Origin: an uncultured Gammaproteobacteria bacterium
GTDB taxonomy: Bacteria > Patescibacteriota > Microgenomatia > UBA1406 > GWC2-37-13
Length of the DNA: 64,000 nucleotides
Assembly: GCA_964543535.1 (NCBI GenBank)
Contig: CAZIYS010000001.1
Span: 195,159 to 259,158, forward strand
Direction: 5' to 3'
Shown here: in pieces, positions 26,108 to 40,310 of the stretch
How the letters are laid out: every line of letters starts with the position of its first letter
How positions within the stretch are numbered: position 1 is the stretch's first letter
Made by a program: the position numbers and the translations under genes
Notes under the pieces: generated by a model
Databases searched by the model: none
Told to the model about the DNA's origin: nothing
Seen by the model: the letters and a program-made list of their open reading frames with translations, nothing else

Positions 26108-26284
26108 TCAACAATTTTTTCCATCTTTATAGCACTTCATGCATAATCTCTCATTGCTGCAACTATAATCAGGCAGTTGTTGAAAAAGTTTTTCTATAAT
26201 TACATTTTTAATATTATTACCAAAAAACAACATAATAAAAATAGCCAATAATAGTATTCCTCCAATAATTAATTTGATCTTCAT
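26108..26284 (-). CDS. 58-aa membrane-anchored Cys-rich peptide (not in the ORF track)
   Basis: My own translation: MKIKLIIGGILLLAIFIMLFF...YSCSNERLCMKCYKDGKNC. ATGA overlap with the stop of the CcdA gene. Confidence 0.4.
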   Translation of the reverse strand: MKIKLIIGGILLLAIFIMLFFGNNIKNVIIEKLFQQLPDYSCSNERLCMKCYKDGKNC

Positions 26285-26889
26285 ATGTATCCCTGTAAAG
26301 AGAAATAGATAAGATAGACTGCCGCTGCCAACATTAATACCCCGCCAATTCTTTGAACTAATGTCATATGTCTCATTAATTTAAATTGAAAAACTTTATC
26401 GGTTATGATTAAACCAAACACAAAAAACGGGGTAATAAAACCAATCCCGTAAAAAATAATCATAAAAATCCCGTTGACCAAACTTCTTTGAGCAATAATA
26501 AATGTCAAAAGTGAAGCCAGTTGCGGACCAATACAACCTAAAATAACTGCACCGTAAAGGAGTCCGTCAATAAAGGCATGTGAATGTTTGTTAGGCTCTT
26601 GTATGTGAGGTAGTTCTAATTTAATGGCGCCCAACATCCCCAATCCTGAAATTAAGGTAACAATACCGGCTATAAAATAAAGATAGCGATTAACAGAATT
26701 AGTAAAAACAATACCGGTCAGAGAAGCAACGATTCCTAAAGAAATAAAAACAAGAAGCATTCCAGAAAAAAAATAGATTACCCCAATCAATGATTTTTTT
26801 ATTTTACTGAGAATTACCGGCACCATGATAAAGGTACAGGGGCCAACGATTGAAAGAATACCTAAAATAAATGCATAGAGATAGTTCAT
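26281..26889 (-). CDS. ccdA: CcdA/DsbD-family thiol:disulfide transmembrane electron transporter
   Basis: Six TM segments with one Cys in each half (GPCTF and GCIGPQ). Confidence 0.7.
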   Translation of the reverse strand: MNYLYAFILGILSIVGPCTFIMVPVILSKIKKSLIGVIYFFSGMLLVFISLGIVASLTGIVFTNSVNRYLYFIAGIVTLISGLGMLGAIKLELPHIQEPNKHSHAFIDGLLYGAVILGCIGPQLASLLTFIIAQRSLVNGIFMIIFYGIGFITPFFVFGLIITDKVFQFKLMRHMTLVQRIGGVLMLAAAVYLIYFSLQGYI

Positions 26890-26958: not shown

Positions 26959-27561
26959 TTATTTAAATCTAATCTTCACTTTTTTCCCTTTAAGATTGTC
27001 TTCATTTGCAGGTTTAAGATCTTCGTTTTTAAGACAGTAACCGGTGACATCGCAAATTATTTTGGCCAAATTTTCCTTGGAGATATATCCATCAACCGTA
27101 TATTCTTTCGAGTCTTTTTTTGTAGAAAATACAAAACCAGGAGTAAGACTTAATTTATATTTTTGCATGATGTCATTACAACTTTCCCGGGTATATTTTT
27201 CCAGTTTGAAAGCCTGGCCCTCTTTTTGCAAAAGCTCGTCCAAATGCTGATCTTCCAATATGCACCAAAAACAGACCGGAGAGTAAAAATATTTTATCGT
27301 TAAGTCTGCGTCAGGATTTCCCGCTTGCTCATCCGGACATTTGGATTCAAGCTTAATTTTTTTCGTAAACTCAGGTTTTAACTGTTGCTTTTTTAATATT
27401 AATAATTGTTTTTGAGAAATAATTAATTTTTTTTTATTAAAATTTATTAAATTCCTTAAAGCAATATTGGCAAAAATAAACAAAAAAATAATTAGCAAAC
27501 CGATTACCAACAAAAAATATCGTTTTTCATCCTTTTCAATAACAATTTTAGGAAAACTCAT
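26959..27561 (-). CDS. membrane-anchored thioredoxin-like protein (CxxC)
   Basis: N-terminal TM helix. CFWC motif after a beta-strand-like YFYSPV. Confidence 0.55.
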   Translation of the reverse strand: MSFPKIVIEKDEKRYFLLVIGLLIIFLFIFANIALRNLINFNKKKLIISQKQLLILKKQQLKPEFTKKIKLESKCPDEQAGNPDADLTIKYFYSPVCFWCILEDQHLDELLQKEGQAFKLEKYTRESCNDIMQKYKLSLTPGFVFSTKKDSKEYTVDGYISKENLAKIICDVTGYCLKNEDLKPANEDNLKGKKVKIRFK

Positions 27562-27562
27562 A

Positions 27563-27790
27563 TTAACAACCTCCCACCTGTTGGGGAATATCTTTTAAAG
27601 CTGCCGGTAAATTTGATTTACCTACTGAAGTAGTAGTCCCATCCGCTTGTTTCTTACCAAGAAGGCTTGTTAATACCACTGTTTGGATTACGGAAATGAA
27701 GACTAAAATTGACAAAAGTCCTAAAACAAGCATGTTAATATTAAAGCGAAAAGTTATCTGTTTGTTTTGACGTTTTAATTCTTCTACCAT
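27563..27790 (-). CDS. 75-aa single-TM protein ending in QQVGGC
   Basis: Strong SD (aaggaggtg) 7 nt upstream. One TM helix. C-terminal Cys is the last residue. Confidence 0.5.
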   Translation of the reverse strand: MVEELKRQNKQITFRFNINMLVLGLLSILVFISVIQTVVLTSLLGKKQADGTTTSVGKSNLPAALKDIPQQVGGC

Positions 27791-27889
27791 TATTTCTCAC
27801 CTCCTTTAGAGATTGTTTGCGAACTTATAATAGTGAGCATTACAATCTCTTAAGTCCTTCCGTAGCTAATTGAGCGAAGGAGGACTCCA

Positions 27890-28510
27890 TCATTTTCCAT
27901 TTTCCAACTGTTGTAACATCGATTGCTCTATACTAACTATTGACAGCCGTTCGCTCATCCAGTCATTAACGGAAACTGATTTCGGATCAGTACCTTTCGA
28001 TTGTAAATACGTTGCCGCAATCGCATAGTGTTTTGGCCACCAGAAGCGGTACCATAAGAATAATTCTTCCTTAATTTTTTTGTCATCCCATCCTTGAGTA
28101 ATAAGATATTTTGCTAGTCCCATAGCCGCCTGGGCATGAAGACAGTCTTTAGTGTCAATGGGAGCATCGCAACAGGGGTGAGGCAATTTACCTAAACTTT
28201 CCAGTCTCTTTTTCTGATCGGCCGTTAAGCTGGAATCAGCAATTTCTTTTTCCATCTCAATCATTTGCTGACCGTTGGTCTCAACATATTTACTTAAAGT
28301 CACCGGTTCATCTTTCCATTTATATGGTCTGACTTCATCTTTATCAGTTGGGAGAATATCGGTTGATCCACTGTTAACGGATGCAGCTGATAAAGTAATT
28401 GCTCCGGAAGACAAAGCGTAGATTACCTGGGTCAAAAGAATTTGTTTAACGGCTGTTACCAAAATTGCAATAATTAAAAAACTTTTTATTAATTTTGACT
28501 TGAATATCAT
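27890..28510 (-). CDS. secreted Cys-rich protein, P-C-C-D...D-C-x-H family (paralog 1), unknown function
   Basis: Signal-anchor N-terminus. PHPCCDAPIDTKDCLHAQA aligns with RPCCDNSTAFPDCNHGMA of ORF 37634..38563. Confidence 0.6.
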   Translation of the reverse strand: MIFKSKLIKSFLIIAILVTAVKQILLTQVIYALSSGAITLSAASVNSGSTDILPTDKDEVRPYKWKDEPVTLSKYVETNGQQMIEMEKEIADSSLTADQKKRLESLGKLPHPCCDAPIDTKDCLHAQAAMGLAKYLITQGWDDKKIKEELFLWYRFWWPKHYAIAATYLQSKGTDPKSVSVNDWMSERLSIVSIEQSMLQQLENGK

Positions 28511-28911: not shown

Positions 28912-29391
28912 TTATAACTCCCATTTCAACTTCCTCTGCGAAACACCGCCAACATCTTTGATGATTAACTCAACGAACTTTGTTTCTGATAAGACTGTAT
29001 TAAAAGTCAAGGTTCCCTCTCGATGATGGCCGCCTGGAACAGTGCCTTTCCAATTCGAATTAGAGTAGATATTGCTTTTGTCATCAACAAATGAACTTAT
29101 CTGAGCTACATCAAATGCTAAATCCACCGAGTGAGTCTCAAATACAATGTTAAAACTTGGTTTTTCCCCGATTTTCAAAACTTTTGGCTTAACTTTTACT
29201 GTAACATTGCCGCCTTCATTTTCCTGAGAATTTAGATTTTCTTCCTGCTTACTAACACTGCTAACAGCTTTAATCCCGGCAGATTTTTTATCGGTTTTTT
29301 TGACGGCATTAATTCCCAAAAATAAAACTACGAAGACTAAAATTATTAGTAAAAAATTATTGATTTTTGACATGGGTTTTGATCTTAGCAA
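28912..29391 (-). CDS. membrane-anchored secreted protein with GGHH motif, unknown function
   Basis: N-terminal TM helix, beta-rich ectodomain, GTVPGGHHREG. Confidence 0.5.
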   Translation of the reverse strand: MLRSKPMSKINNFLLIILVFVVLFLGINAVKKTDKKSAGIKAVSSVSKQEENLNSQENEGGNVTVKVKPKVLKIGEKPSFNIVFETHSVDLAFDVAQISSFVDDKSNIYSNSNWKGTVPGGHHREGTLTFNTVLSETKFVELIIKDVGGVSQRKLKWEL

Positions 29392-29806
29392 TTGTTTTTA
29401 ACATATATAAAATCCCCAATAAGTTCATCGATATTCCGAAAATGATGATGGGAATTTGATATCTCGTCAGAAATATGGCAAAGCCTGATAGACCGATTAT
29501 GGGCAGAACTTCGCTTAGGTGATGTGCACAGCAGGCAATCATTGAGGCAGATGAAGTACCTGTAGAAGCGGCCGTGACGGCTCCGGCTTGATTTGTGACT
29601 GGCGAATGACTGATTAGCCTCTTCAACCGTGTAAATAAACCAATCTGAACTCCAAATCCTAAGGACAAAGTTATCATCCAATACCAGAGTTCTTTAAATT
29701 GGAAAATGGTGGCTGACCAACTTCTTGAAGCAAATGTCATCACTAAAAAATAAAAAAACAGCAGTCCGAAAAACCCGGCTAACCCGCTTAAAATTTCTTT
29801 TTTCAT
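29357..29806 (-). CDS. 4-TM membrane protein with intramembrane C-C-A-H-H motif
   Basis: SASMIACCAHHLSEVLP lies within a hydrophobic segment. Confidence 0.55.
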   Translation of the reverse strand: MKKEILSGLAGFFGLLFFYFLVMTFASRSWSATIFQFKELWYWMITLSLGFGVQIGLFTRLKRLISHSPVTNQAGAVTAASTGTSSASMIACCAHHLSEVLPIIGLSGFAIFLTRYQIPIIIFGISMNLLGILYMLKTIAKIKTHVKNQ

Positions 29807-29855: not shown

Positions 29856-30455
29856 TTAGAAAGTTCTTTTTTTATAGTCTAAGTAAGTCTTGCTAAATTT
29901 ATCTTCCATCTCCTTCTCTTCTTGTTTGGCCAAAATAAAATAACGGATAATCAAGATCGGCGCCATAAGAAGAGTAATTAAGGTTGGCCATTGGAGAAGA
30001 AAACCAATAATAATCAGAATAAAACCAATGTATTGAGGGTGGCGGACATATTTATAGACACCGGTTGTTGCCAAAATATTTTCTTTTTGCGCTTTGTATA
30101 AGACTTCCCAGGCAGTGGCAATGAGAACTAAACCGCCAATAATTAAGCCATTACTAATTAGATGAAGATAGTTAAAATGCGGATCTCCGGAAATATTCAG
30201 AAGTTTATTCAATACGTGGCCTGAATCGTGAGAAAAATCAATATTAAAAAATTTGTTACCAAACCACGAAGTTAACAGATAAATAGTTAAGGGAAATCCA
30301 TACATCTCGGCAAAAAGAGCGACTATAAATGCGGAAAACGTCTGATAAGTCCGCCAATCGGTTTTACTGCGGGGCTTAAAAGCCGATTTTAGAAACACTA
30401 AAAAAATGACTATGCTAATTATGACAAGAAACCAGTTTCCATACTCGTATTTCAT
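29856..30455 (-). CDS. isoprenylcysteine carboxyl methyltransferase (ICMT/PEMT) family membrane methyltransferase
   Basis: VYKYVRHPQYIGFILIIIGFLL motif. Confidence 0.75.
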   Translation of the reverse strand: MKYEYGNWFLVIISIVIFLVFLKSAFKPRSKTDWRTYQTFSAFIVALFAEMYGFPLTIYLLTSWFGNKFFNIDFSHDSGHVLNKLLNISGDPHFNYLHLISNGLIIGGLVLIATAWEVLYKAQKENILATTGVYKYVRHPQYIGFILIIIGFLLQWPTLITLLMAPILIIRYFILAKQEEKEMEDKFSKTYLDYKKRTF

Positions 30456-30496: not shown

Positions 30497-30763
30497 TCAT
30501 AATGACAAAATCTTGCTGATGAACTTCTTTTTATCCAGAGTACCGCTAGAAAAAAGTTTTCCGTTGATGATAATTCCCGGGTTGGATAAAACCGAATGTT
30601 CAACGGCCAGATCTAAACCCTTTGCAGTGATGATATTAATTTTTTCAATATGTAGTTTAAGATAAGAAAATTCTTTTTTGACTTCCTGGAATATGATTTT
30701 AGCCCGCTCACATTCCGTACACCCGGGAGCAGTCAAAAACTGGACTTGAATTACCGGTTTCAT
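30497..30763 (-). CDS. small thioredoxin-fold protein (glutaredoxin-like, CxxC)
   Basis: 88 aa with TAPGCTECE motif. Confidence 0.7.
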   Translation of the reverse strand: MKPVIQVQFLTAPGCTECERAKIIFQEVKKEFSYLKLHIEKINIITAKGLDLAVEHSVLSNPGIIINGKLFSSGTLDKKKFISKILSL

Positions 30764-31458
30764 GGATTATTTTTTGGGTTCTGTAATTGATCAATATGAC
30801 TTAAAAGAACATTGGCCGGGACATTCATGTTGGGAAAATCAGCTGATGAATGTATTTTCCCATCCGGAGTAATATGAATATAGGTATGGCCAGCCCGATC
30901 GTCATGCATTGATGAAGGTGTACCTAAGGCTTTATATGCTTTTGTTACTTTCCGGTCGGCATCAATAAGAATCGGAGTAGTAATTCTTTCTTCTTTAAGA
31001 ATTGGGTTCCAGGTTGCCTGATCATCCACGCTAACCGGAATAATTATTGTATTCAATTTCTCAAAATCATTCTTAAACCGTTCCAACCGAGATATTTCCT
31101 GCCAGCAAGGAGCACACATCACTCCTTCGTTAAAAAAAAGAAAAATATTTTTTCCTTTATATTCTGATAGTGAAATTGTTTTTCCTGATGTTGAGGGAAG
31201 ACTGAAATCTGGAGCTATTGTTCCAGGGGCGAGTGGTACAAATTTTTTATTGCTTGCGGCTCCTCCCCCGCCATGATGATCAGCCATCGGATCGGCAGCG
31301 GCAACCTGTTTATTATCAGCTTTGACTTGATTTTTACTGCTGGCCATCGAATACCCGACCACAACCGTCATAATAATAAGAATAATAAGGGCATAGGTTA
31401 ATATTTTATCCTTTGATAACGAAAAAACAACCTGATCTGTATCTGTAATATCTTTCAT
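30760..31458 (-). CDS. membrane-anchored redoxin (AhpC/TSA / ResA-like thiol-disulfide oxidoreductase)
   Basis: TM anchor. FFNEGVMCAPCWQE CxxC block in a thioredoxin fold. Confidence 0.75.
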   Translation of the reverse strand: MKDITDTDQVVFSLSKDKILTYALIILIIMTVVVGYSMASSKNQVKADNKQVAAADPMADHHGGGGAASNKKFVPLAPGTIAPDFSLPSTSGKTISLSEYKGKNIFLFFNEGVMCAPCWQEISRLERFKNDFEKLNTIIIPVSVDDQATWNPILKEERITTPILIDADRKVTKAYKALGTPSSMHDDRAGHTYIHITPDGKIHSSADFPNMNVPANVLLSHIDQLQNPKNNP

Positions 31459-31579: not shown

Positions 31580-32428
31580 TTAAGACTGCCGGGATTTTCC
31601 TTTAAGAAAAAATCCTATGCCAATTAATATAATGATTAACAGAAATATCCAGTCCGGCACTCCGCCAGTCAAATTTAAAATTTTTCTTTGCATTAAAGTC
31701 ATCGTCGCCACTAACCGTGTTTGCGAAGGAGTGATCGATGTTATCTGATTGGTCGTTGCCAGATAAAGAATATAAATCCCGATTATTAAAAAAACCATAC
31801 CGGTTATAAGATTGGTCGAATGAATCATTAACTGTCTATTAAAAACTTTAAACCGGAAAGTAAATCCCCTGACAAACCGGCTTTCTGAAAAGTTAAAGCT
31901 TTCCCAAAAAAAAGCGAGAATGAAAAGAGGAAAAACCATACCAAAGACATAGACTAAAGACAGAATCAAGGCCTGAAAAGTACTCGCTGAAAGAGCAGTC
32001 AACGTTAATACTCCAGCCAAAACCGGCGCACAGCAGGATGAGGCTAAGCCGGAAAATAGACCCAGTCCAAAGACAGAAAAGACATCATGCTTTTTTAAGA
32101 GCGGGGCGGTTTTGAAAGGCGGGTTGAATTTTTTTCCGGAAAAAGAAAGCAGCGCCAATAAAATCATAAAAACTCCGCCTAAATAAAAAACCTGGGTATG
32201 ATAATTCTTAAAGAGCGAGCTTAAAAATGAAACGCCTAAACCGATCGGTACTAAAATAGCGGCTACTCCCAAGAAAAAAACAAAGGTCATCAAAAGAATC
32301 GCCTTCTTTTGTTTGAAAGTATAGGCAAAATAGGCAGGGAGCATAAAAGTTATACAACAAGGGGCAAACAGAGCTAACATTCCTCCTAAAAACGAGGCAA
32401 TAATTGAGGTTTCAAATAAAATATTCAT
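31580..32428 (-). CDS. CcdA-like membrane protein with vicinal Cys-Cys in both halves (copy 1)
   Basis: LFAPCCITFMLPAY and SSCCAPVLAG. Paralog of ORF 38560..39393. Confidence 0.7.
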   Translation of the reverse strand: MNILFETSIIASFLGGMLALFAPCCITFMLPAYFAYTFKQKKAILLMTFVFFLGVAAILVPIGLGVSFLSSLFKNYHTQVFYLGGVFMILLALLSFSGKKFNPPFKTAPLLKKHDVFSVFGLGLFSGLASSCCAPVLAGVLTLTALSASTFQALILSLVYVFGMVFPLFILAFFWESFNFSESRFVRGFTFRFKVFNRQLMIHSTNLITGMVFLIIGIYILYLATTNQITSITPSQTRLVATMTLMQRKILNLTGGVPDWIFLLIIILIGIGFFLKGKSRQS

Positions 32429-32560
32429 TTAATGACAACTTTTTTTTGAATTTTTATCATTATCACCACCATGACCACCATGGTTTCTCATCATAATTAT
32501 ATGAATAAGCGGACATAACAGTAATATTGCGTAGGGAAGGATGCTTTTTATAATATCCAT
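32429..32560 (-). CDS. 43-aa DUF2933-like membrane peptide (not in the ORF track)
   Basis: My own translation: MDIIKSILPYAILLLCPLIHIIMMRNHGGHGGDNDKNSKKSCH. Its stop is immediately followed by the ATG of the next gene. Confidence 0.55.
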   Translation of the reverse strand: MDIIKSILPYAILLLCPLIHIIMMRNHGGHGGDNDKNSKKSCH

Positions 32561-32583: not shown

Positions 32584-32601
32584 ATTAAGAAATTATGAAG
32601 A
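32584..32601 (-). promoter_or_regulatory. direct-repeat box, candidate response-regulator site
   Basis: attaaga (32584) and atgaaga (32595), 11-bp period. Overlaps the kinase stop codon, upstream of the ATG at 32560. Confidence 0.45.
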
Positions 32602-33600
32602 AACAAGAGGCAGGCTGATCGTAAAAACAGTCTTTTTGCCGACTTTGCTTTTTACTTCTATCTCTCCCCGATGAGAGTTAACTATGGCTTTAGCAATCGC
32701 CAGTCCTAATCCCGACCCGAGGGTCTTTTCTCCGGAGGATCCCCGGTAAAAACGGTCAAAAATACGGGAGATATCTTTTTGAGATATGCCTACACCATTA
32801 TCTTTTATTTCTATAATTGCCTGATATTTATTCTTCTTAAGAACGATTTCAACTTTGTCTTTTGTAGGAGTGTATTTGATCGCATTATCAATAATATTTA
32901 AGAGTGCCCGTCCCAGCTTTTCTTTAAAACCAATAATTTCGATGTTTTTATCAAAAGAACCGGAGACTTTAATATTTTTCTTTAGAGCCATTTTCTGAGC
33001 CAGTTCAAATAATTCTTCCATTAGTTCACTGAGATTAAATGAAATAGCATTTTTTTGTTCCATCGGTGTCTCCGACCAGGCCAGATCCAGAACATTTTTT
33101 AACGTCGTTGAGACGCGGTGAGTTTCTTGAACTGCCTCTTTAAGAGTTTGGCGGTATTCATCTTCGGTTCTTTTTTGATTCAAAGCGATTTCTAGAGTAC
33201 TTCGTAACGTTGATAAAGGTGTTTTCAGTTCATGAGCCACATCGGCAATAAACTGTTGTTCGCGCTTAAAAGCAAAATGCAGGCGATCAAGCAGTTGGTT
33301 GAATGTCTGTGCAAGTTCACCGATCTCATCGCGACTGTCAATTCCGTCAACCCTCTCATCAAGATTTTTACTGGAAATCATTCGCATCCGCGAGGATAGA
33401 TAGGTAAGGGATTCGGTGATTTTATAGATGATAATAAAACCAAATAGAGCCAAAGTTAAAAAAAGAAGCAGAATAAAATAAAAACCGTTTTTAAAAGCAA
33501 ACACGTGGACAACTAAAACAATAAATATTCCTAACAAAGCAAGGCTGCCTATATACCAAAAAAAAAGTTTTTTTATTAAACTGTCAACCGGCTTTCTCAT
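32593..33600 (-). CDS. sensor histidine kinase (HAMP-HisKA-HATPase; CusS/CopS-like architecture)
   Basis: H-box ADVAHELKTPL, N-box IIDNAIKYT, G-box GSGLGLAIAK. Two N-terminal TM helices. Confidence 0.85.
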   Translation of the reverse strand: MRKPVDSLIKKLFFWYIGSLALLGIFIVLVVHVFAFKNGFYFILLLFLTLALFGFIIIYKITESLTYLSSRMRMISSKNLDERVDGIDSRDEIGELAQTFNQLLDRLHFAFKREQQFIADVAHELKTPLSTLRSTLEIALNQKRTEDEYRQTLKEAVQETHRVSTTLKNVLDLAWSETPMEQKNAISFNLSELMEELFELAQKMALKKNIKVSGSFDKNIEIIGFKEKLGRALLNIIDNAIKYTPTKDKVEIVLKKNKYQAIIEIKDNGVGISQKDISRIFDRFYRGSSGEKTLGSGLGLAIAKAIVNSHRGEIEVKSKVGKKTVFTISLPLVSS

Positions 33601-33602
33601 CT

Positions 33603-34274
33603 TTATTTTTTGCCAATTTTATAACCGACCCCGTGGACGGTCTGGATTAATTTATTTTTAAATCCGGAGTCGACTTTCTTCCTTAAAGTAGCCACAAAAA
33701 CGTCAACCACATTAGACAGTGCATCGAAGTTATAGTCCCAGACATGTTCGGTAATCTGGGTTCGGGTGACTACTTCACCCTGATGTCTTAGTAAAAATTC
33801 AAGAATAGAAAATTCCTTGGGAGTTAAAAAAATTATTTTATTGCCTCTTTTAGCAGTATGCTTAACCGGATCAACTTCCAAATCCTCAACCTGAAGAGTG
33901 GTTTGCGTTTGATTATGACTGCGGCGAAGAAGAGCTTGAAGGCGGGCTTTCAGTTCGGTAAAAGCAAATGGTTTGGTGAGATAGTCATCAGCACCAACAT
34001 TTAAGCCTTCGACTTTATCTTCAACCGTGGTTTTGGCGGTTAACATAAGAATGGGTGTAGTAATTTTTTTATTTCTCAAGCTCCGGCAAACATCCAGTCC
34101 GTTAATTTTAGGCAGCATGACATCAAGAATGATTAGGTCATAACTTTCTGATTCAGCTAAATACTGTCCTTCTTCTCCGTCAAATGCCTGGTCGACGGCA
34201 AATCCTTCCTCAATCAATCCTTTTCTGACAATATTAGAAAGTTTTCGCTCGTCCTCAATAATTAAGATTCTCAT
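33603..34274 (-). CDS. OmpR/PhoB-family response regulator
   Basis: Receiver domain DLIILDVMLP...LTAK and a winged-helix C-terminus. ATG at 34274 is preferred over the track's TTG at 34280. Confidence 0.9.
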   Translation of the reverse strand: MRILIIEDERKLSNIVRKGLIEEGFAVDQAFDGEEGQYLAESESYDLIILDVMLPKINGLDVCRSLRNKKITTPILMLTAKTTVEDKVEGLNVGADDYLTKPFAFTELKARLQALLRRSHNQTQTTLQVEDLEVDPVKHTAKRGNKIIFLTPKEFSILEFLLRHQGEVVTRTQITEHVWDYNFDALSNVVDVFVATLRKKVDSGFKNKLIQTVHGVGYKIGKK

Positions 34275-34285
34275 AGGCAAATGAT

Positions 34286-34534: not shown

Positions 34535-34882
34535 TTAGGGAAGAAGAAATCCTCCTTTATAACCGGGAATCCACCAGGGAATAAAGACGTAGATCATAAA
34601 AGCAATACGAAAGATAATAGAAAATACTACGTAAAAAATAATTAAAAGCAAGTGGTCTCTTATGTTCTTATGTCCCTTTTTCTCACAACATCTTCCGTAA
34701 TATTGATACAAAAAAAAGAAAAGCCCTCCCACAAGAAGAAGCGGGAGAAGAAAAATTTTCTTATCCCCCTCTTGACGAACCAACAAAAGATAACCGGAAG
34801 CGGCAAGAAAAATAATCAGGCCGCCACAACAAACAAGATGGAACAAAAAAAACGGCACCACTGACCCAATAAACTTTTTCAT
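34535..34882 (-). CDS. MerF/MerT-like small membrane protein with two vicinal Cys-Cys pairs
   Basis: HLVCCGG lies in TM1 and GRCCEKKGH in a loop. The layout resembles mercury/metal uptake proteins. Confidence 0.5.
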   Translation of the reverse strand: MKKFIGSVVPFFLFHLVCCGGLIIFLAASGYLLLVRQEGDKKIFLLPLLLVGGLFFFLYQYYGRCCEKKGHKNIRDHLLLIIFYVVFSIIFRIAFMIYVFIPWWIPGYKGGFLLP

Positions 34883-34924: not shown

Positions 34925-37165
34925 TTATATTTTTGCTTTTTTTAGAAAAAGCGAATTTGTAACTACTGAAATGCTAGAAATTGCCATTGCTCCTGAGGCT
35001 AAAATCGGACTAATCCACCCCATCATGGCCACCGGTATCAAAACTACATTATACGCGAAAGCCCAAAATAAATTAAGCTTAATTGTTTTCATTGTTTGTT
35101 TGGATAATTTAATCGCCGAAACCACTGACATTAAATTTTTATTAACTAAGGTAATCCCGGCCGCTTCAATCGCAACGTCGGTGCCGCTTCCCATAGCAAT
35201 CCCGATGTCAGCGGAGGCAAGCGCCGGCGCATCATTAATTCCGTCTCCGATCATAGCAACTATTTTTCCTTGTAATTGAATCTTTTTTACTTCTTTTTCT
35301 TTGTCCTGTGGCAAAACTTCGGCTAAAACGTTTTCTTTTTTAATCCCAACTTGATTAGCAATTGCTATTGCTGTTTGATTGTTGTCTCCGGTAATCATAA
35401 ATATCTCAATCTCTAAATCTCTCAATCTCTGAATTGCTTCTTTAGCCGTTTCTTTAATCGTATCGGCAATGGCAATTGCGCCTACTAATTTTTCATCTAT
35501 ATAAACATAAACTACGGTTTTGCCTTGATTTTTTAGTTTTTGAGCCTGGTCACCCTTAGGGTGTTCAGCCACGAGTTTACCTACATAAATCTTTTTTCCG
35601 TTGATCATCCCTTCAACACTTTGACCGGTAATTGATTTAAACTTAGAGACTTTAATTAATTGAAGTTTTTCTTCTTGCGCTTTATTAACAATTGCTTCGC
35701 CCAAAGGATGCTCGGAATTTTTTTCGACAGATGCGGATAGAGTTAAAAGCGAAGATATTAAATTTTTTGCGGTTTGTGGTTTTCCGTCAAAAAATTTCGA
35801 TATCGAGCTTTTATTTATCACAATAATGTCTGTCACTTCTGGTTTGCCTTTCGTCAATGTCCCTGTCTTGTCAAAAATTATTGCTTTGATTTTATGGGCA
35901 GTTTCCAAGCTCTCAGCATCTTTAATTAATATTCCATGTTGAGCCCCGATTCCTGTTCCAACCATAATCGCAGTCGGGGTTGCCAGTCCCATTGCGCAAG
36001 GACAGGCAATAATTAAAACGGCAATCGAGTTAAGCATTGCCAAAATGAATCCGCCGGCTGACGGCCCAAAAACATACCAACCAACAAATGTTGAGATAGC
36101 CAACATTATCACAATAGGAACAAAATAAGAAGAAATAATATCGGCCAATCTTTGAATTGGGGCTTTGCTTCCCTGTGCTTCTTCAACCATTTTAATAATT
36201 TGGGAAAGCATGGTATCTTTACCGACTTTAGTGGCTTTATAAACAAAACTTCCCGATTTGTTCATCGTCGCTCCAATTACCATATCTCCTTTATATTTTG
36301 AAGCGGGCATGCTTTCACCAGTCACCATCGACTCATCAATTGCTGATTCTCCTTCAATAATGACTCCGTCAACAGGAATTTTTTCTCCCGGTCGAACCCT
36401 GATTAAATCACCAGCAACAACCGCATCAATTGAAATATCGATTTCTTTTTTATTTCGAATTACTCGAGCAGTTTTTGCCTGAAGGCCGATTAATTTTTTA
36501 ATCGCTTCTCCTGTCCCGGCTTTAGCTTGAGCTTCCAAGAACCGGCCCAACAAAATCAAACCAATAATAACTGTTGAGACGTCAAAATACGGTTCGGTTT
36601 TTAAATTTAGTCTTTCAAAAAAACCAGGAAAAAATACTACTGCGGCAGAATAAAGATAAGCTACCGTTGTTCCAATCACTACCAAAGTATCCATGTTGGC
36701 AAGGCGGTGTTTTAAAGAAGAAATCGCCGCTTTGTAAAAATCATAAGCTCCCCAAAACTGGACAATTGACGCCAGGAAAAAATGATAGAACATGTTTTTT
36801 AAGATATTTGGAGCCGTATTCAAAAGCCCTGGAAAACTCCCCCAAACGACTAAGCCAGCTAAAATTAGGCTGACAGTAGTTTTAATCTGGAGGTCTTTCA
36901 ATTCTTTTTCCTTTTCTTCTTTGATCTTCTCATCCAATGAATCTTCCTCGTGGGTTTCATCTAACATCGCTTCGTAACCAACACTTTCTACTGCACTTTT
37001 TATAGCATCATTTCCAATTGGCATAGCCGCAGTTATAGTGGCTTTGCCAGTATTCAAATTAACAACCGCTTCAGTAACTCCGGGAATTGCTTTTAATGCT
37101 TTCTCATTGGAATAAACGCACGAAGCACAGTGCATGCCTTTAATGGCAAAAGTTTGTTTATTCAT
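34925..37165 (-). CDS. copA: copper-translocating P1B-type ATPase
   Basis: N-terminal [37 protein letters not shown]. Confidence 0.95.
35745..35812. repeat. AT-rich hairpin element family E, in-frame copy inside copA
   Basis: Differs by only a few bases from 37175-37240. Translated as [23 protein letters not shown] between DKTGT and SEHPL. Confidence 0.85.
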
Positions 37166-37278: not shown

Positions 37279-37632
37279 CTATTTAATAATTAGTTTGCCG
37301 TGGAACATACCCATGGCACAGGAAAAATCAAACTCCCCTTTTTTATCGGGGGTGATTTCAACAGTTACTTTCTCATTCAGAGGTAATGATTTTTTAATTT
37401 TAAAGTCGGCAAAAATCACTTCTTCCAAACAACTATTACTGTCTTTTCTTTGAAAAACTAGTTTTGTTGTTTTCCCATATGGAATTGCAATCCTTTCCGG
37501 TTTATAACCACCATCAACTAAGATATCAATTCTTCCTTCTGCTTGAATTGTATTAACTTTTTTCATAAAAAAGAACCAATAAGTAAATATTATGCCTAAG
37601 ATGCCAGAAACAGCAACAATTATTTTATCCAT
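37279..37632 (-). CDS. membrane-anchored cupredoxin-like domain protein
   Basis: TM anchor and FSCAMGMFHGKLIIK C-terminus. Same motif as the C-terminus of ORF 24735..26048. Confidence 0.65.
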   Translation of the reverse strand: MDKIIVAVSGILGIIFTYWFFFMKKVNTIQAEGRIDILVDGGYKPERIAIPYGKTTKLVFQRKDSNSCLEEVIFADFKIKKSLPLNEKVTVEITPDKKGEFDFSCAMGMFHGKLIIK

Positions 37633-37633
37633 A

Positions 37634-38563
37634 TTAAACCCCGCATCCTCCTCCGGTTTTTGGCGGCTGTTCGACTATTCCTTTATTAATTAACCACTGT
37701 TTAGCCGCTTGCCAACCTGAGGAAGAAGAAAATTCTTTACCTAATATTATCTGGGCTGGAACCTGGCTAAATTTTTTCCCTTCCTTATTTTTAAAGTATA
37801 ACGCCAAATCATAGTAATTACTTGGGAACCAAAATGCATTAAAGTATTTGGCCGCTTCAAACATCTGATTTTCCGTGGCATTATTTCCTGCCATCAACTG
37901 TAACACTGCCAGTAACGCCATTCCGTGGTTGCAGTCCGGAAAAGCAGTCGAATTATCACAACAAGGACGATAGATATTGCCAGCTACTTTTGCCACTAAC
38001 GCCTGTTGTTGATCGTTTAATGAAATCAGGCTTTCTTTTGAAAAATAATTCATTGGGTCACCGGCCGCCAAGCTCCAGCCACCGGTTGAGGCAAAATTAC
38101 CAACCTTGCCTTCACCGTACTTAACAATATCGCCTTCATCTAAAACCTTTGATTTATTGTTTAAACCAACGGCCCAGAAAAAGTTGAGCAAAAAATAAGA
38201 ATTGTCACGATCTATCTTGATTTTTTTATCTGATCCTTTAGTCAAAATTTCCAGCTGCTCTTTAGTTAACGGCTGAGCGCTCTTTTCATATGTCTGTTTA
38301 AACTTTTCCAGATCAATCACTCCGGAAGCAACCATTTTAGGCCCTAAATCGTCATATTTCGCATTAATCTCAAAGCCTTTTTCCGGATTAATTTCATCAA
38401 ATAAATTTGCCGTTTCTTTTTTCGCGGCAGTTTCTTTGCTTTTTGAGATTAACTTATTAACCTGCGGCTTTAACACATAGGCTAAAGCTAAAATATTTAA
38501 CCCCAAACTCAATCCCAAAACAATAAGCCAAAGATTTTTGGCTGGTTTTTTTGTTCTTTTCAT
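37634..38563 (-). CDS. secreted Cys-rich protein, P-C-C-D...D-C-x-H family (paralog 2), ends in GGGCGV
   Basis: Signal anchor. YRPCCDNSTAFPDCNHG. ATGA overlap with the upstream CcdA-like gene. Confidence 0.6.
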   Translation of the reverse strand: MKRTKKPAKNLWLIVLGLSLGLNILALAYVLKPQVNKLISKSKETAAKKETANLFDEINPEKGFEINAKYDDLGPKMVASGVIDLEKFKQTYEKSAQPLTKEQLEILTKGSDKKIKIDRDNSYFLLNFFWAVGLNNKSKVLDEGDIVKYGEGKVGNFASTGGWSLAAGDPMNYFSKESLISLNDQQQALVAKVAGNIYRPCCDNSTAFPDCNHGMALLAVLQLMAGNNATENQMFEAAKYFNAFWFPSNYYDLALYFKNKEGKKFSQVPAQIILGKEFSSSSGWQAAKQWLINKGIVEQPPKTGGGCGV

Positions 38564-39393
38564 TTTTTTTTAATTAATTTATAAAAAATAAAAATAATAA
38601 AACTGAAAATTAATAAATCGATGATCGGATTTTGAAAATATTTGGAGATATTAAAAACCATCAGCCGTAAAGGTTTAGTATAAACTTCCATCTGATACAT
38701 CTGGATCTTATTGTAATAATTAAAAATAATAATCAAAACTCCGGAGATGATAAAAATTCCTGCTCCTAAAGCCTGAAAGATTTTGTAGATTTTTTCCCGA
38801 TTAGAACCGGAAATTTTATTGGTTAGTTTATTGTAGAAAAGAGACAGAATAAAAAGCGGGAAAACTATCCCCAATACATAAGCTAAAGAGACAATTAAGG
38901 CCTGAAATAAAGTCGGTGATAAACTGGTCAGAGTGACGGCCGCAAACAAAACCGGCGCGCAACAGGAAGAAGAAAGCCCTGACATTACCCCTAAACTAAA
39001 CACCGAAAATATATTTATTTTTTCTCCCCCCTTGTCATCCCGAGCGAGCGGAGCGAGTCGAGGGAGCTTAAAAAGTTGGGGGAAATGAAAGATTGGTTTA
39101 ATCGTCATAAATCCCATAAAAATCAAAAACAATCCTCCAAAATAATAAATTTGCTTATGCCAACTGTCAAAAAAGAAGATAAAAAATCTAAATCCCAAAG
39201 CGACCGGAATTAAGATTATCGATAAACCCAGTGCAAATACCAAGGTATAAAACATTACTTTTGTTCCGCTTTTGAAAACCGTTCCCAGATAAGAAGGAAA
39301 TAAAAATGTGATACAGCATGGGGCAAACAAAGCCAAGACTCCGGCCAAAAACGAAGCGGTCAAGGAAATGCCGAAGAAAAAGTTGCTATTCAT
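38560..39393 (-). CDS. CcdA-like membrane protein with vicinal Cys-Cys in both halves (copy 2)
   Basis: LFAPCCITFLFPSY and SSCCAPVLFA. Carries the family C repeat in a loop. Confidence 0.7.
   Translation of the reverse strand: MNSNFFFGISLTASFLAGVLALFAPCCITFLFPSYLGTVFKSGTKVMFYTLVFALGLSIILIPVALGFRFFIFFFDSWHKQIYYFGGLFLIFMGFMTIKPIFHFPQLFKLPRLAPLARDDKGGEKINIFSVFSLGVMSGLSSSCCAPVLFAAVTLTSLSPTLFQALIVSLAYVLGIVFPLFILSLFYNKLTNKISGSNREKIYKIFQALGAGIFIISGVLIIIFNYYNKIQMYQMEVYTKPLRLMVFNISKYFQNPIIDLLIFSFIIFIFYKLIKKK
39036..39064. repeat. GC-rich palindromic element family C, in-frame copy inside a CDS
   Basis: catcccgagcgag-cggag-cgagtcgaggg, translated as part of PRLAPLARDD. The paralog at 31580..32428 lacks these residues. 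Confidence 0.75.
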
Positions 39394-39401
39394 AAATTTT
39401 T

Positions 39402-39505
39402 ATTGATATTTTCGCTTTTAGCAGACGAGGTAAGCGTAATTTTTTCACCTTTTGAGTGATAAAATTACCTTACCGAGTCCAATAAACACGGTGTCAAGCT
39501 TTTAT
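39402..39505. repeat. hairpin element related to module X/E termini
   Basis: Reverse complement starts aaagcttgacaccgt and ends aaaagcgaaaatatcaa, as at 17463-17624. Internal stem ggtaagcgtaatttt/aaaattaccttacc. Confidence 0.5.
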
Positions 39506-39999
39506 TTGACAGTCGCTTTAACCTTAAATATTAATTTTTGATTGTCCGGATCATTGGTTGTCACATAAACTTCCCTCTCTACCACTCCATAAACCGGCAT
39601 TATGGAAGGTCTGTAAGTTACTTTAATGATCGCTTCTTTCCCCGGCAGTACTTCTCCGGCAAAATCTGAAATATTATGCATCCCAAAAAGCTCAGACTCT
39701 TTACCGTTTATTACGATCTGACCAAAAGCGCAGTTACAACTTGAAGAAACGTTGCTCAACTGCAAAGGTTTTTGACCGATATTTTTTATCTTAAAGTTGG
39801 CTGATTTATCGTCGGAAACCTTCATCTTCCCCAAATCAGCAAAAGTCGTTTTAGCTTCCACCCTTGGCTTTTCTTTATTTGTAGTTGAATAAGACGCGAT
39901 TTGCGGTTGCGGCTTTTGTCCACCCACTAACATAAAATACGAACCGCCAATAACAACGATTGAAAAAATAATTATCCCGATGATTAAAATTTTTGACAT
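39502..39999 (-). CDS. DUF1573-domain protein (membrane-anchored)
   Basis: FKIKNIGQKPLQLSNVSSSCNCAFG matches the DUF1573 hallmark. Confidence 0.7.
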   Translation of the reverse strand: MSKILIIGIIIFSIVVIGGSYFMLVGGQKPQPQIASYSTTNKEKPRVEAKTTFADLGKMKVSDDKSANFKIKNIGQKPLQLSNVSSSCNCAFGQIVINGKESELFGMHNISDFAGEVLPGKEAIIKVTYRPSIMPVYGVVEREVYVTTNDPDNQKLIFKVKATVK

Positions 40000-40046: not shown

Positions 40047-40310
40047 TTATTTTCGTTTAAACACCTCAATCACCTCGGCCACTTTTTCGTCAATCCCCTT
40101 TCCACTAACAATAGACTCTCTAACACAGGTTTTTAAGTGGTTTTCCAAAATCAATTCCGCGACTTTTTCCAATGAACTTTCTACTGCCTGAGTCTGTTGA
40201 ATCACATCCAAACAGTACTGGTCCTTTTCCACCATCTCAATCACCTTCTCTAAATGCCCATGGGCAATTTTTAATCGATGAAGCAGATTCTTTTTATGCT
40301 GATTGTTCAT
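40047..40310 (-). CDS. csoR: CsoR/RcnR-family metal-sensing repressor
   Basis: 87 aa. RLKIAHGHLEKV...QYCLDV...HLKTC gives a C-H-C ligand pattern. Confidence 0.85.
   Translation of the reverse strand: MNNQHKKNLLHRLKIAHGHLEKVIEMVEKDQYCLDVIQQTQAVESSLEKVAELILENHLKTCVRESIVSGKGIDEKVAEVIEVFKRK

Follow-up and report, generated by a model that had tools for sequence, protein, structure and literature searches.

The DNA analysed here is a 64,000-nt window of contig CAZIYS010000001.1 (assembly GCA_964543535.1) from a tiny groundwater bacterium, whose genome assembly (G000) amounts to 1.009 Mb and is 97% complete. On the minus strand of this window runs a long series of co-directional genes that holds two CcdA-like membrane proteins with doubled cysteines, which we call CC-CcdA-1 (CC1) and CC-CcdA-2 (CC2), together with an ordinary CcdA that serves as comparator (Table 1). 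The branch of the CcdA family to which the two CC proteins belong sits almost only in copper-defence gene clusters.

A four-cysteine branch of the CcdA family

CC1 contains exactly four Cys (residues 24, 25, 132 and 133), placed in the motifs LFAPCCITF and ASSCCAPV, and CC2 likewise contains exactly four (residues 26, 27, 144 and 145) in the same motifs, the second of which reads (A/S)SSCCAPV across the pair. The two proteins share 41% identity, and the third loop is longer in CC2 than in CC1 (the cytoplasmic loop near 39036-39064). The ordinary CcdA has one Cys per half, in GPC and GC. These readings agree with the original prediction, which was made from the letters of the window and had assigned APCC and SSCCAP to the two paralogs and GPC and GC to the ordinary CcdA. 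The latter represents a narrow lineage, with 171 database matches whose identity falls from 45% to about 30%. Against the Pfam family DsbD_TM (PF02683), CC1 scores 30.1 bits (cut-off 27.1), CC2 remains below the cut-off with 22.9 bits, and the ordinary CcdA reaches 44.3 bits; by Pfam, the CC proteins of the window consist of the membrane domain alone.

CC1 and CC2 are CcdA-fold proteins and form a distinct four-Cys branch of the CcdA/DsbD-beta family. The family profile matches the CcdA of Thermus thermophilus (PDB 5vkv) with E = 1.3e-17, and in this alignment the first Cys of each pair falls on a known active Cys, so that the second is the extra one. An AlphaFold (AF2) model of CC1, for which an alignment of 36 family members (A1) was the input, has a mean predicted local distance difference test (pLDDT) score of 82.3 and a predicted template modelling (pTM) score of 0.80, with low confidence at loop residues 106-111. 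In the model, transmembrane (TM) helices 1 and 4 are each broken directly before the Cys pair (residues 21-22 and 131-133), and the fifth loop contains a beta hairpin, after which come an additional helix on the surface and a seventh one that spans the membrane. Foldseek against the PDB returned 5vkv as the top match, yet no match at E <= 0.001, and a wide structural search gave Z = 8.9 over 206 residues for the same entry. The best match in the wide search was the N-terminal membrane domain of chloroplast Tic214 (7vcf_A, Z 9.8, slightly above CcdA; 8z9y_A, Z 8.8). Lys and Arg counts over the family place loops 1, 3 and 5 on the inner side along with the C-terminal tail, and loops 2 and 4 on the outer side along with the N-terminus.

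The doubling of the cysteines is a stable property of this branch and goes well past what chance would give. Among the 120 best database matches, both CC pairs are kept in 113 of the 113 that cover both motif regions, down to 45% identity; in an exhaustive search with representatives at 50% identity, the CC/CC state is held to about 30% identity, below which two-Cys relatives appear. A maximum-likelihood tree built from 137 proteins groups all of the 78 CC/CC members into a single clade that needs one change of state (SH-like approximate likelihood ratio test, SH-aLRT, support 100), and none of 500 label shuffles reached this single-change clustering. The usual CcdA/DsbD_TM pattern of one redox Cys per half is thus broken in 78 of 78 clade members, each of which has two. 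None of the full-length proteins in the joint alignment of CC and single-Cys proteins combines a CC half with a single-Cys half, and the two extra Cys are always inherited together. In the tree, the clade is nested among longer CcdA-like proteins of the single-Cys type; more distant from it are the ordinary CcdA of the window and the canonical CcdAs of 232 aa. At the positions of the extra Cys (C25 and C133), the single-Cys sisters mostly have Ser, Thr or Ala. Two further residues are specific to the clade, namely an invariant, outward-facing His77 (Arg or Gln in the sisters) and Ser126 (Phe or Tyr elsewhere). A phylogeny with the CC state mapped onto it had been put forward together with the original prediction, which was to fall if the CC variants were scattered within cytochrome-maturation clades with no association with metal genes; the tree and the loci gave a single clade, and one that is linked to copper.

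A pattern scan with one genome per species found a relative in at least 588 species genomes. The hosts are mostly Patescibacteria, with Chloroflexota and Actinomycetota besides, including the cultured Nocardioides and Ornithinimicrobium, and DPANN archaea are among the named database members. Matches on plasmids were obtained by tblastn in Burkholderia contaminans, Paraburkholderia fungorum, Ralstonia, Cellulomonas, Rhodococcus and Streptomyces; the two of these genes that we translated, from the Burkholderia contaminans and Cellulomonas plasmids, carry both CC pairs. No Corynebacterium plasmid was among these tblastn matches. In Corynebacterium glutamicum, the copper-induced gene cg3288, of unknown product, adjoins tlpA (PMC3140484) and is a conceivable member of the CC family.

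Several database entries begin at residue 47, as if an in-frame TGA lay upstream. We considered a selenocysteine at the CC position and rejected it: in one contig the DNA reads through in an open frame that encodes APCC, in another an ordinary stop stands at a Tyr codon, and these entries are thus artefacts of gene calling. On the Burkholderia contaminans plasmid NZ_CP090638 (L095:6929-7876), the RefSeq 'CcdA' starts about 30 codons late, which removes the first helix together with APCC, and the open frame upstream of this start reads METSIFF...FAPCCISV; late-start annotation likewise explains several of the database entries that start at residue 47.

Copper gene clusters and partner proteins

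The CC state goes with copper. As a matched control, 401 genomes of the same phylum were drawn evenly and searched with a profile of the single-Cys sisters, giving 60 loci with 6-kb flanks. A gene for a Cu-ATPase, CsoR or a YHS protein lies within 4.5 kb in 27 of the 29 CC loci of this set, as against 3 of the 31 single-Cys loci (Fisher p = 3e-11, a value that is overstated, as related genomes are not independent). In the same set, a redoxin, PCCD or DUF1573 gene directly adjoins the CC gene in 27/29 loci, the redoxin in 13/29 and PCCD or DUF1573 in 14/29. Among the CC loci with good flanks, 38 of 51 hold a Cu-ATPase, CsoR or YHS gene.

For a broader survey of neighbours, all open reading frames (ORFs) within 4.5 kb of the CC gene were clustered over 81 CC loci, and the large clusters were named by Pfam; clusters that lay solely on the opposite strand and had no Pfam match were treated as spurious. 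A greedy choice of ORFs was dropped in favour of this clustering, as it proved unreliable in high-GC loci. The neighbours named in this way include a P1B ATPase (40 of the 81 loci), AhpC-TSA/Redoxin (39), DUF1573 (32), CsoR (29), a histidine kinase (24), the PCCD family (24), a response regulator (21), YHS (15) and DUF2933 (12). The redoxin gene directly adjoins the CC gene in 37/81 loci, the PCCD gene lies directly downstream of it in 21/81, and free-standing YHS genes stand directly upstream in some loci.

These neighbours fall into two arrangements, and the window holds one of each. Module A, around CC1, has the order DUF2933, CC-CcdA and ResA-like redoxin, optionally preceded by genes for a response regulator and a histidine kinase; in many loci, genes for a small thioredoxin and an ICMT-like methyltransferase continue the series. 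Module B, around CC2, has the order DUF1573, CC-CcdA, PCCD protein and then the ATPase (CopA); here the stop codon of CC2 overlaps the start codon of the next gene (ATGA). Mapped onto the tree of CC proteins (68 rows), the module label changes only twice, with the exact placement of CC2 unsure, as it sits on a very long branch. A conjugative plasmid of Burkholderia contaminans carries cueR, DUF2933, CC-CcdA, a peroxiredoxin-family gene, a thioredoxin-family gene, ICMT and a P-type ATPase, which is the order of the window from 32560 down to 29856. On the Cellulomonas plasmid the series runs response regulator, histidine kinase, glutaredoxin, CC-CcdA and redoxin, and at a distance of a few genes follows a P-type ATPase. 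The position of the small thioredoxin/glutaredoxin-like gene is also filled on both plasmids.

Table 1. Four-cysteine CcdA-like genes of the window, the ordinary CcdA and neighbouring genes
Feature	Position	Strand	Remarks
CC-CcdA-1 (CC1)	31580..32428	-	282 aa; 7 predicted TM; N-terminus outside, C-terminus inside; module A type
Cys24-Cys25 codons of CC1 (APCC)	32354..32359	-	TM1 break
Cys132-Cys133 codons of CC1 (SSCCAPV)	32030..32035	-	TM4 break
CC-CcdA-2 (CC2)	38560..39393	-	277 aa; fast-evolving paralog; module B type
Cys26-Cys27 codons of CC2	39313..39318	-	
Cys144-Cys145 codons of CC2	38959..38964	-	
Ordinary single-Cys CcdA	26281..26889	-	202 aa; two Cys (GPC, GC); comparator, outside CC clade
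ICMT/PEMT-like membrane methyltransferase	29856..30455	-	Last conserved gene of module A
Small Thioredoxin_3/glutaredoxin-like protein	30497..30763	-	CxxC, no TM; proposed cytoplasmic electron donor
Membrane-anchored redoxin, ResA/Etrx/Bcp type	30760..31458	-	CAPC; module A; proposed CC1 client
DUF2933 peptide	32429..32560	-	43 aa; abuts CC1 start; conserved upstream gene of module A
OmpR-type response regulator (RR) and histidine kinase (HK)	32593..34280	-	Upstream of module A; RR-HK-DUF2933-[CC]-redoxin recurs
CopA-type P1B ATPase	34925..37165	-	HMA domain and CPC motif
Cupredoxin_1 protein	37279..37632	-	Pfam
PCCD protein	37634..38563	-	Translationally coupled to CC2; proposed client
DUF1573 Ig-like protein	39502..39999	-	C-x-C motif; membrane-anchored; first gene of module B
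CsoR-family repressor	40047..40310	-	Cys...His-x3-Cys signature

In the redoxin family (alignment A2), C115 and C118 (spaced as CxxC or CxxxC), D166, M184, H191 and M211 are invariant, and the closest solved relatives of its profile are a Bcp-type peroxiredoxin, Bacillus ResA and pneumococcal Etrx. ResA and Etrx are clients of CcdA. The invariant His aligns with the active-site Arg of peroxiredoxins, so it presumably lies beside the CxxC, and because this His and two invariant Met adjoin the CxxC, the redoxin probably binds copper. The redoxin of the window also has a Met/His/Gly-rich linker (DPMADHHGGGG) between the anchor and the fold, and its fused relative in P0129 has a similar one (SSDDNMSSHHS); this linker may act as a copper-catching arm. 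A likeness to Sco proteins was considered and set aside, with no Sco entry among the best 60 of 124 PDB profile matches. The PCCD family is defined by an invariant PCC...DC.H and a C-terminal Cys (GGGCGV). Its supposed likeness to CcmH was rejected at the sequence level, as neither the PDB profile search nor Pfam scans of 25 members returned a match.

In natural fusions, the CC protein is linked with a redoxin, YHS domains or Cu-ATPases. In P0129, the CC-CcdA continues into an eighth TM helix, then a linker rich in Met and His, and finally a redoxin with CYPAC; the protein resembles the beta and gamma domains of DsbD, and its topology is as expected for a redoxin that works outside the cell. 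A cytoplasmic YHS domain forms the C-terminus of P0122, P0393 and P0089, of which P0393 occurs on 32 contigs. P0145 (three contigs) and P0128 each combine a CC-CcdA with a P1B ATPase, joined by a linker that binds heavy metals or is rich in His; these two are independent fusions, belong to different subclades, and both stand behind DUF1573. For three single-Cys sisters the neighbours were read one by one: they are redoxin and glutaredoxin for P0165 and DsbA-like proteins for P0220 and P0175, in all three cases without copper genes. Because these sisters have thioredoxin-fold partners and no copper genes, the thiol relay is older than the CC state.

Several other genes of the island and of related loci deserve mention. 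Beside the ordinary CcdA, at 26959-28510, a thioredoxin-like 200-aa protein and a second PCCD paralog make up, together with it, a third thiol module of the island. Directly downstream of copA, at 34535-34882 (minus strand), lies a 115-aa protein with two TM helices, HLVCCGG in the first and GRCCEKK after the second, a MerF-like layout; it has no Pfam match, and relatives occur in 5 of the CC loci. Another pair, a membrane protein with ACCAHH at 29357-29806 and a 159-aa secreted protein at 28912-29391 (both minus strand), has no family name and recurs as cluster c9 in 20 of the 81 CC loci. The ICMT/PEMT-like methyltransferase is a fixed member of the copper module in the window and on the Burkholderia plasmids; methyltransferases recur near CcdA-like genes (L003, L096), and the single-Cys relative P0212 is fused to one. 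At L100:5058-5786, a rhodanese-DUF1573 fusion adjoins a CC-CcdA::ATPase fusion and a multicopper oxidase, which hints that sulfane sulfur chemistry is possibly part of some modules.

Proposed role and rival explanations

We propose that the CC-CcdA branch is the membrane step of a thiol-reductant relay in copper stress, of the ScsB/ScsC kind, and we give this proposal a probability of about one half. A relay accounts most economically for the set of partners, for the fusion with a redoxin and for the thioredoxin-fold proteins that accompany the sisters (one of three sisters has the full set of redoxin and glutaredoxin). Most likely, the CC branch feeds reducing power, and perhaps copper too, to cysteine proteins at the cell surface when the cell is under copper stress. 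While the fold, the motifs, the single clade, the gene partners, the fusions and the copper context are shown by the data above, we infer which way the electrons flow, which proteins are clients and what the extra Cys do. In module A, the small cytoplasmic thioredoxin-like protein would reduce the cysteines of CC1 at the centre of the membrane, and these in turn would reduce the CxxC of the outward-facing ResA-like redoxin. In module B, CC2 would serve the Cys-rich surface proteins DUF1573 and PCCD, beside the CopA pump. Considering the copper context and the precedent of ScsB/ScsC, the purpose would be to hold copper-binding or copper-damaged surface thiols in the reduced state while CopA expels Cu(I). 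The extra Cys pair may provide a second redox couple, or may allow a ligand exchange that keeps the site working with Cu(I) present.

Several points weigh against this proposal. A plain relay leaves unexplained the joint doubling of both active Cys, the clade-specific His77 and Ser126 in place of Arg/Gln and Phe/Tyr of the sisters, and the cytoplasmic YHS, His-rich and Cys-rich tails and whole Cu-ATPases at the C-terminus of some members. Module B has no thioredoxin-fold client. A thioredoxin gene is present in the genome (C9:27205-27501), but no recognisable reductase for it; neither a thioredoxin reductase, nor a Pyr_redox_2 protein over the threshold, nor a ferredoxin-thioredoxin reductase was found in the 97%-complete genome.

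The original prediction had suggested that the CC proteins may move a thiophilic metal, and had taken the vicinal CC pairs as the hallmark of MerT, MerF and MerC importers. It is partly supported: the tie to copper is clear, both in the control set and in the YHS and ATPase fusions, so that metal transport would be conceivable, and the partners are those of an electron relay. The CC proteins are not homologous to the Mer importers, with no Pfam or NCBIfam Mer match at E <= 0.01. Because a relay does not explain the Cys doubling, the clade-specific His and Ser or the metal-binding fusions, we keep the Cu(I)-carrying idea alive: tentatively, and with odds clearly on the lower side, the four-Cys CcdA may move Cu(I) by means of its thiolates, or carry both Cu(I) and electrons, while docked on CopA, in which case the redoxin, PCCD and DUF1573 would take up the copper on the outside. 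In the version in which it is a translocator of a thiophilic metal, which we consider possible and rather doubtful, a Cu(I) site made up of the four thiolates in the middle of the membrane and of His77 at its outer mouth would open to one face and then to the other. Copper would be exchanged between YHS or thioredoxin-like carriers in the cytoplasm and, on the outside, the Cys2-His redoxin or PCCD, with the CC protein acting next to CopA or in complex with it. The near-exclusive copper context speaks for such a translocator, as do the C-terminal YHS fusions on 32 contigs and the free-standing YHS genes upstream elsewhere, the two independent fusions to a P1B ATPase, the residues C25, C133, H77 and S126 that mark the CC clade, and the redoxin partner, whose CxxC or CxxxC is accompanied by one His and two Met that never vary. 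In MerT and MerF, Hg(II) is carried by vicinal Cys pairs. The LysE/DsbD superfamily at large includes metal exporters (PMC4608589). However, there is no sequence relation to MerT, MerC or MerF, the partner set is the classic one of thioredoxin, CcdA and ResA, which predates the CC state, and a passive path for Cu(I) beside an ATP-driven exporter brings no obvious benefit, while copper import within a resistance island would be harmful.

Between these two readings lies an electron carrier that is switched on and off by Cu(I) bound to the extra Cys pair and to the YHS or His-rich tails. Relay partners conserved in all members and cytoplasmic metal-binding tails in only some would fit such a gate, and ScsB itself has been reported to bind Cu(I) (PMC8900818). 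Yet most members, both proteins of the window included, have no metal-binding tail, and the genes are already regulated at the level of transcription by CsoR, CueR or a two-component system, so that we regard copper gating as unlikely. It is also conceivable that the four Cys hold an Fe-S or Cu-thiolate cluster within the membrane and serve as a one-electron wire. The Rnf and Nqr subunits carry an Fe-S centre on four membrane-embedded Cys, the strict co-inheritance of the two extra Cys would suit a shared cofactor, and the wide structural search gave weak matches to RnfA/E and NqrE (Z 6.2-6.7). These Z values are within the noise for helical proteins, there is no Pfam match to the Rnf-Nqr family, and all partners are dithiol proteins, which makes a cofactor very improbable. 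Practically negligible is the reading implied by the public records, which label these proteins 'cytochrome c biogenesis protein CcdA', namely that they are ordinary cytochrome c maturation proteins with the extra Cys as neutral variation. The genome has four DsbD_TM-like genes, all in this island, and no match to CcsA/ResC/CcmF (PF01578) in the 97% that is assembled; because of this, none of the four proteins can serve cytochrome c maturation, and the reading is refuted here unless a heme lyase lies in the unassembled 3%. Moreover, the extra Cys never vary within a clade that includes bacteria as well as DPANN archaea, and a Streptomyces plasmid has a canonical CcdA-ResB-TlpA set beside a separate CcdA-family gene that stands with peroxiredoxin and glutaredoxin genes. 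The public label is therefore wrong, at least for this genome.

Relation to known systems and significance

The CC family shares the fold and the inverted repeat of CcdA, as known from Thermus thermophilus (5vkv), from Bacillus subtilis with ResA and StoA, and from pneumococcus with Etrx. Common to both are the Pro-Cys at the breaks of TM1 and TM4 and a membrane-anchored ResA/Etrx-like redoxin as partner. The CC family differs in having two Cys per half, a seventh TM helix that brings the C-terminus to the cytoplasm, and His77 and Ser126; its genes lie in copper loci, and not in cytochrome c or sporulation loci.

The closest functional precedent is found in the Scs and Dsb systems. ScsB maintains ScsC in its reduced form, and each of the two binds Cu(I) (PMC8900818). 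In ScsB/ScsC and DsbD/DsbC, a membrane carrier reduces a thioredoxin-fold protein with CxxC that guards the envelope from copper (PMC8900818), and we propose the same for the CC family. Copper-linked regulation of the genes is common to ScsB/ScsC and the CC family, although for the latter the link to copper tolerance is known from gene context alone. ScsB and DsbD each comprise three domains and have eight TM helices with one pair of Cys in the membrane, whereas the CC family has separate genes and four Cys in the membrane part. The periplasmic alpha and gamma domains of ScsB/DsbD are not fused to the proteins of the window, and the relative P0129 carries a gamma-like redoxin. The hosts also differ, being mostly single-membrane bacteria of the candidate phyla radiation (CPR), Actinomycetota and DPANN archaea.

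With MerT, MerF and MerC, the CC family has in common a vicinal Cys pair in the first TM helix and the setting of a metal-resistance cluster. It differs from them in fold and size as well as in sequence, and copper is what its regulators and pumps indicate. The CC neighbourhoods examined contained CsoR, CopA, YHS and cupredoxin and no mer genes, and a MerA-type reductase was not found in the genome (no Pyr_redox_2 protein over the cut-off). The TlpA-Sco/PCuAC system is similar in its thioredoxin-fold protein with Cys2 and a His near the active site, and some CC redoxins even have the Sco-type CxxxC. In contrast, the profile of the CC redoxins matches ResA and Bcp and not Sco (among the best 60 of 124 matches), and the role of the CC family lies with the export of copper and defence against it rather than with the assembly of oxidases, for whose genes no search was made; cytochrome c maturation genes are missing from the genome. 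Copper islands with copA, cupredoxin, DUF2933 and ICMT, led by merR, have been described in Alteromonas and other Gammaproteobacteria (PMC8478169). They share with the window DUF2933, ICMT, cupredoxin and CopA in a mobile, copper-induced cluster, but are without the trio of CC-CcdA, redoxin and thioredoxin, which stands between DUF2933 and ICMT in the window and on the Burkholderia plasmids.

Full-text literature searches found no description of a four-Cys CcdA, and the co-location of redox and metal genes has been called 'poorly understood' (PMC13707694). How single-membrane cells protect their surface thiols and hand over the Cu(I) expelled by CopA is likewise poorly known. The family treated here is large and unstudied, and it reaches from CPR bacteria to DPANN archaea, Chloroflexota, Actinomycetota and conjugative Burkholderia plasmids. 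If its members were indeed to translocate Cu(I), they would represent a new class of metal transporters born from a disulfide-relay fold. In either case, the CC family is a natural experiment on what a second Cys does to the CcdA mechanism, and its cultured hosts Nocardioides, Cellulomonas and Paraburkholderia make this question directly testable.

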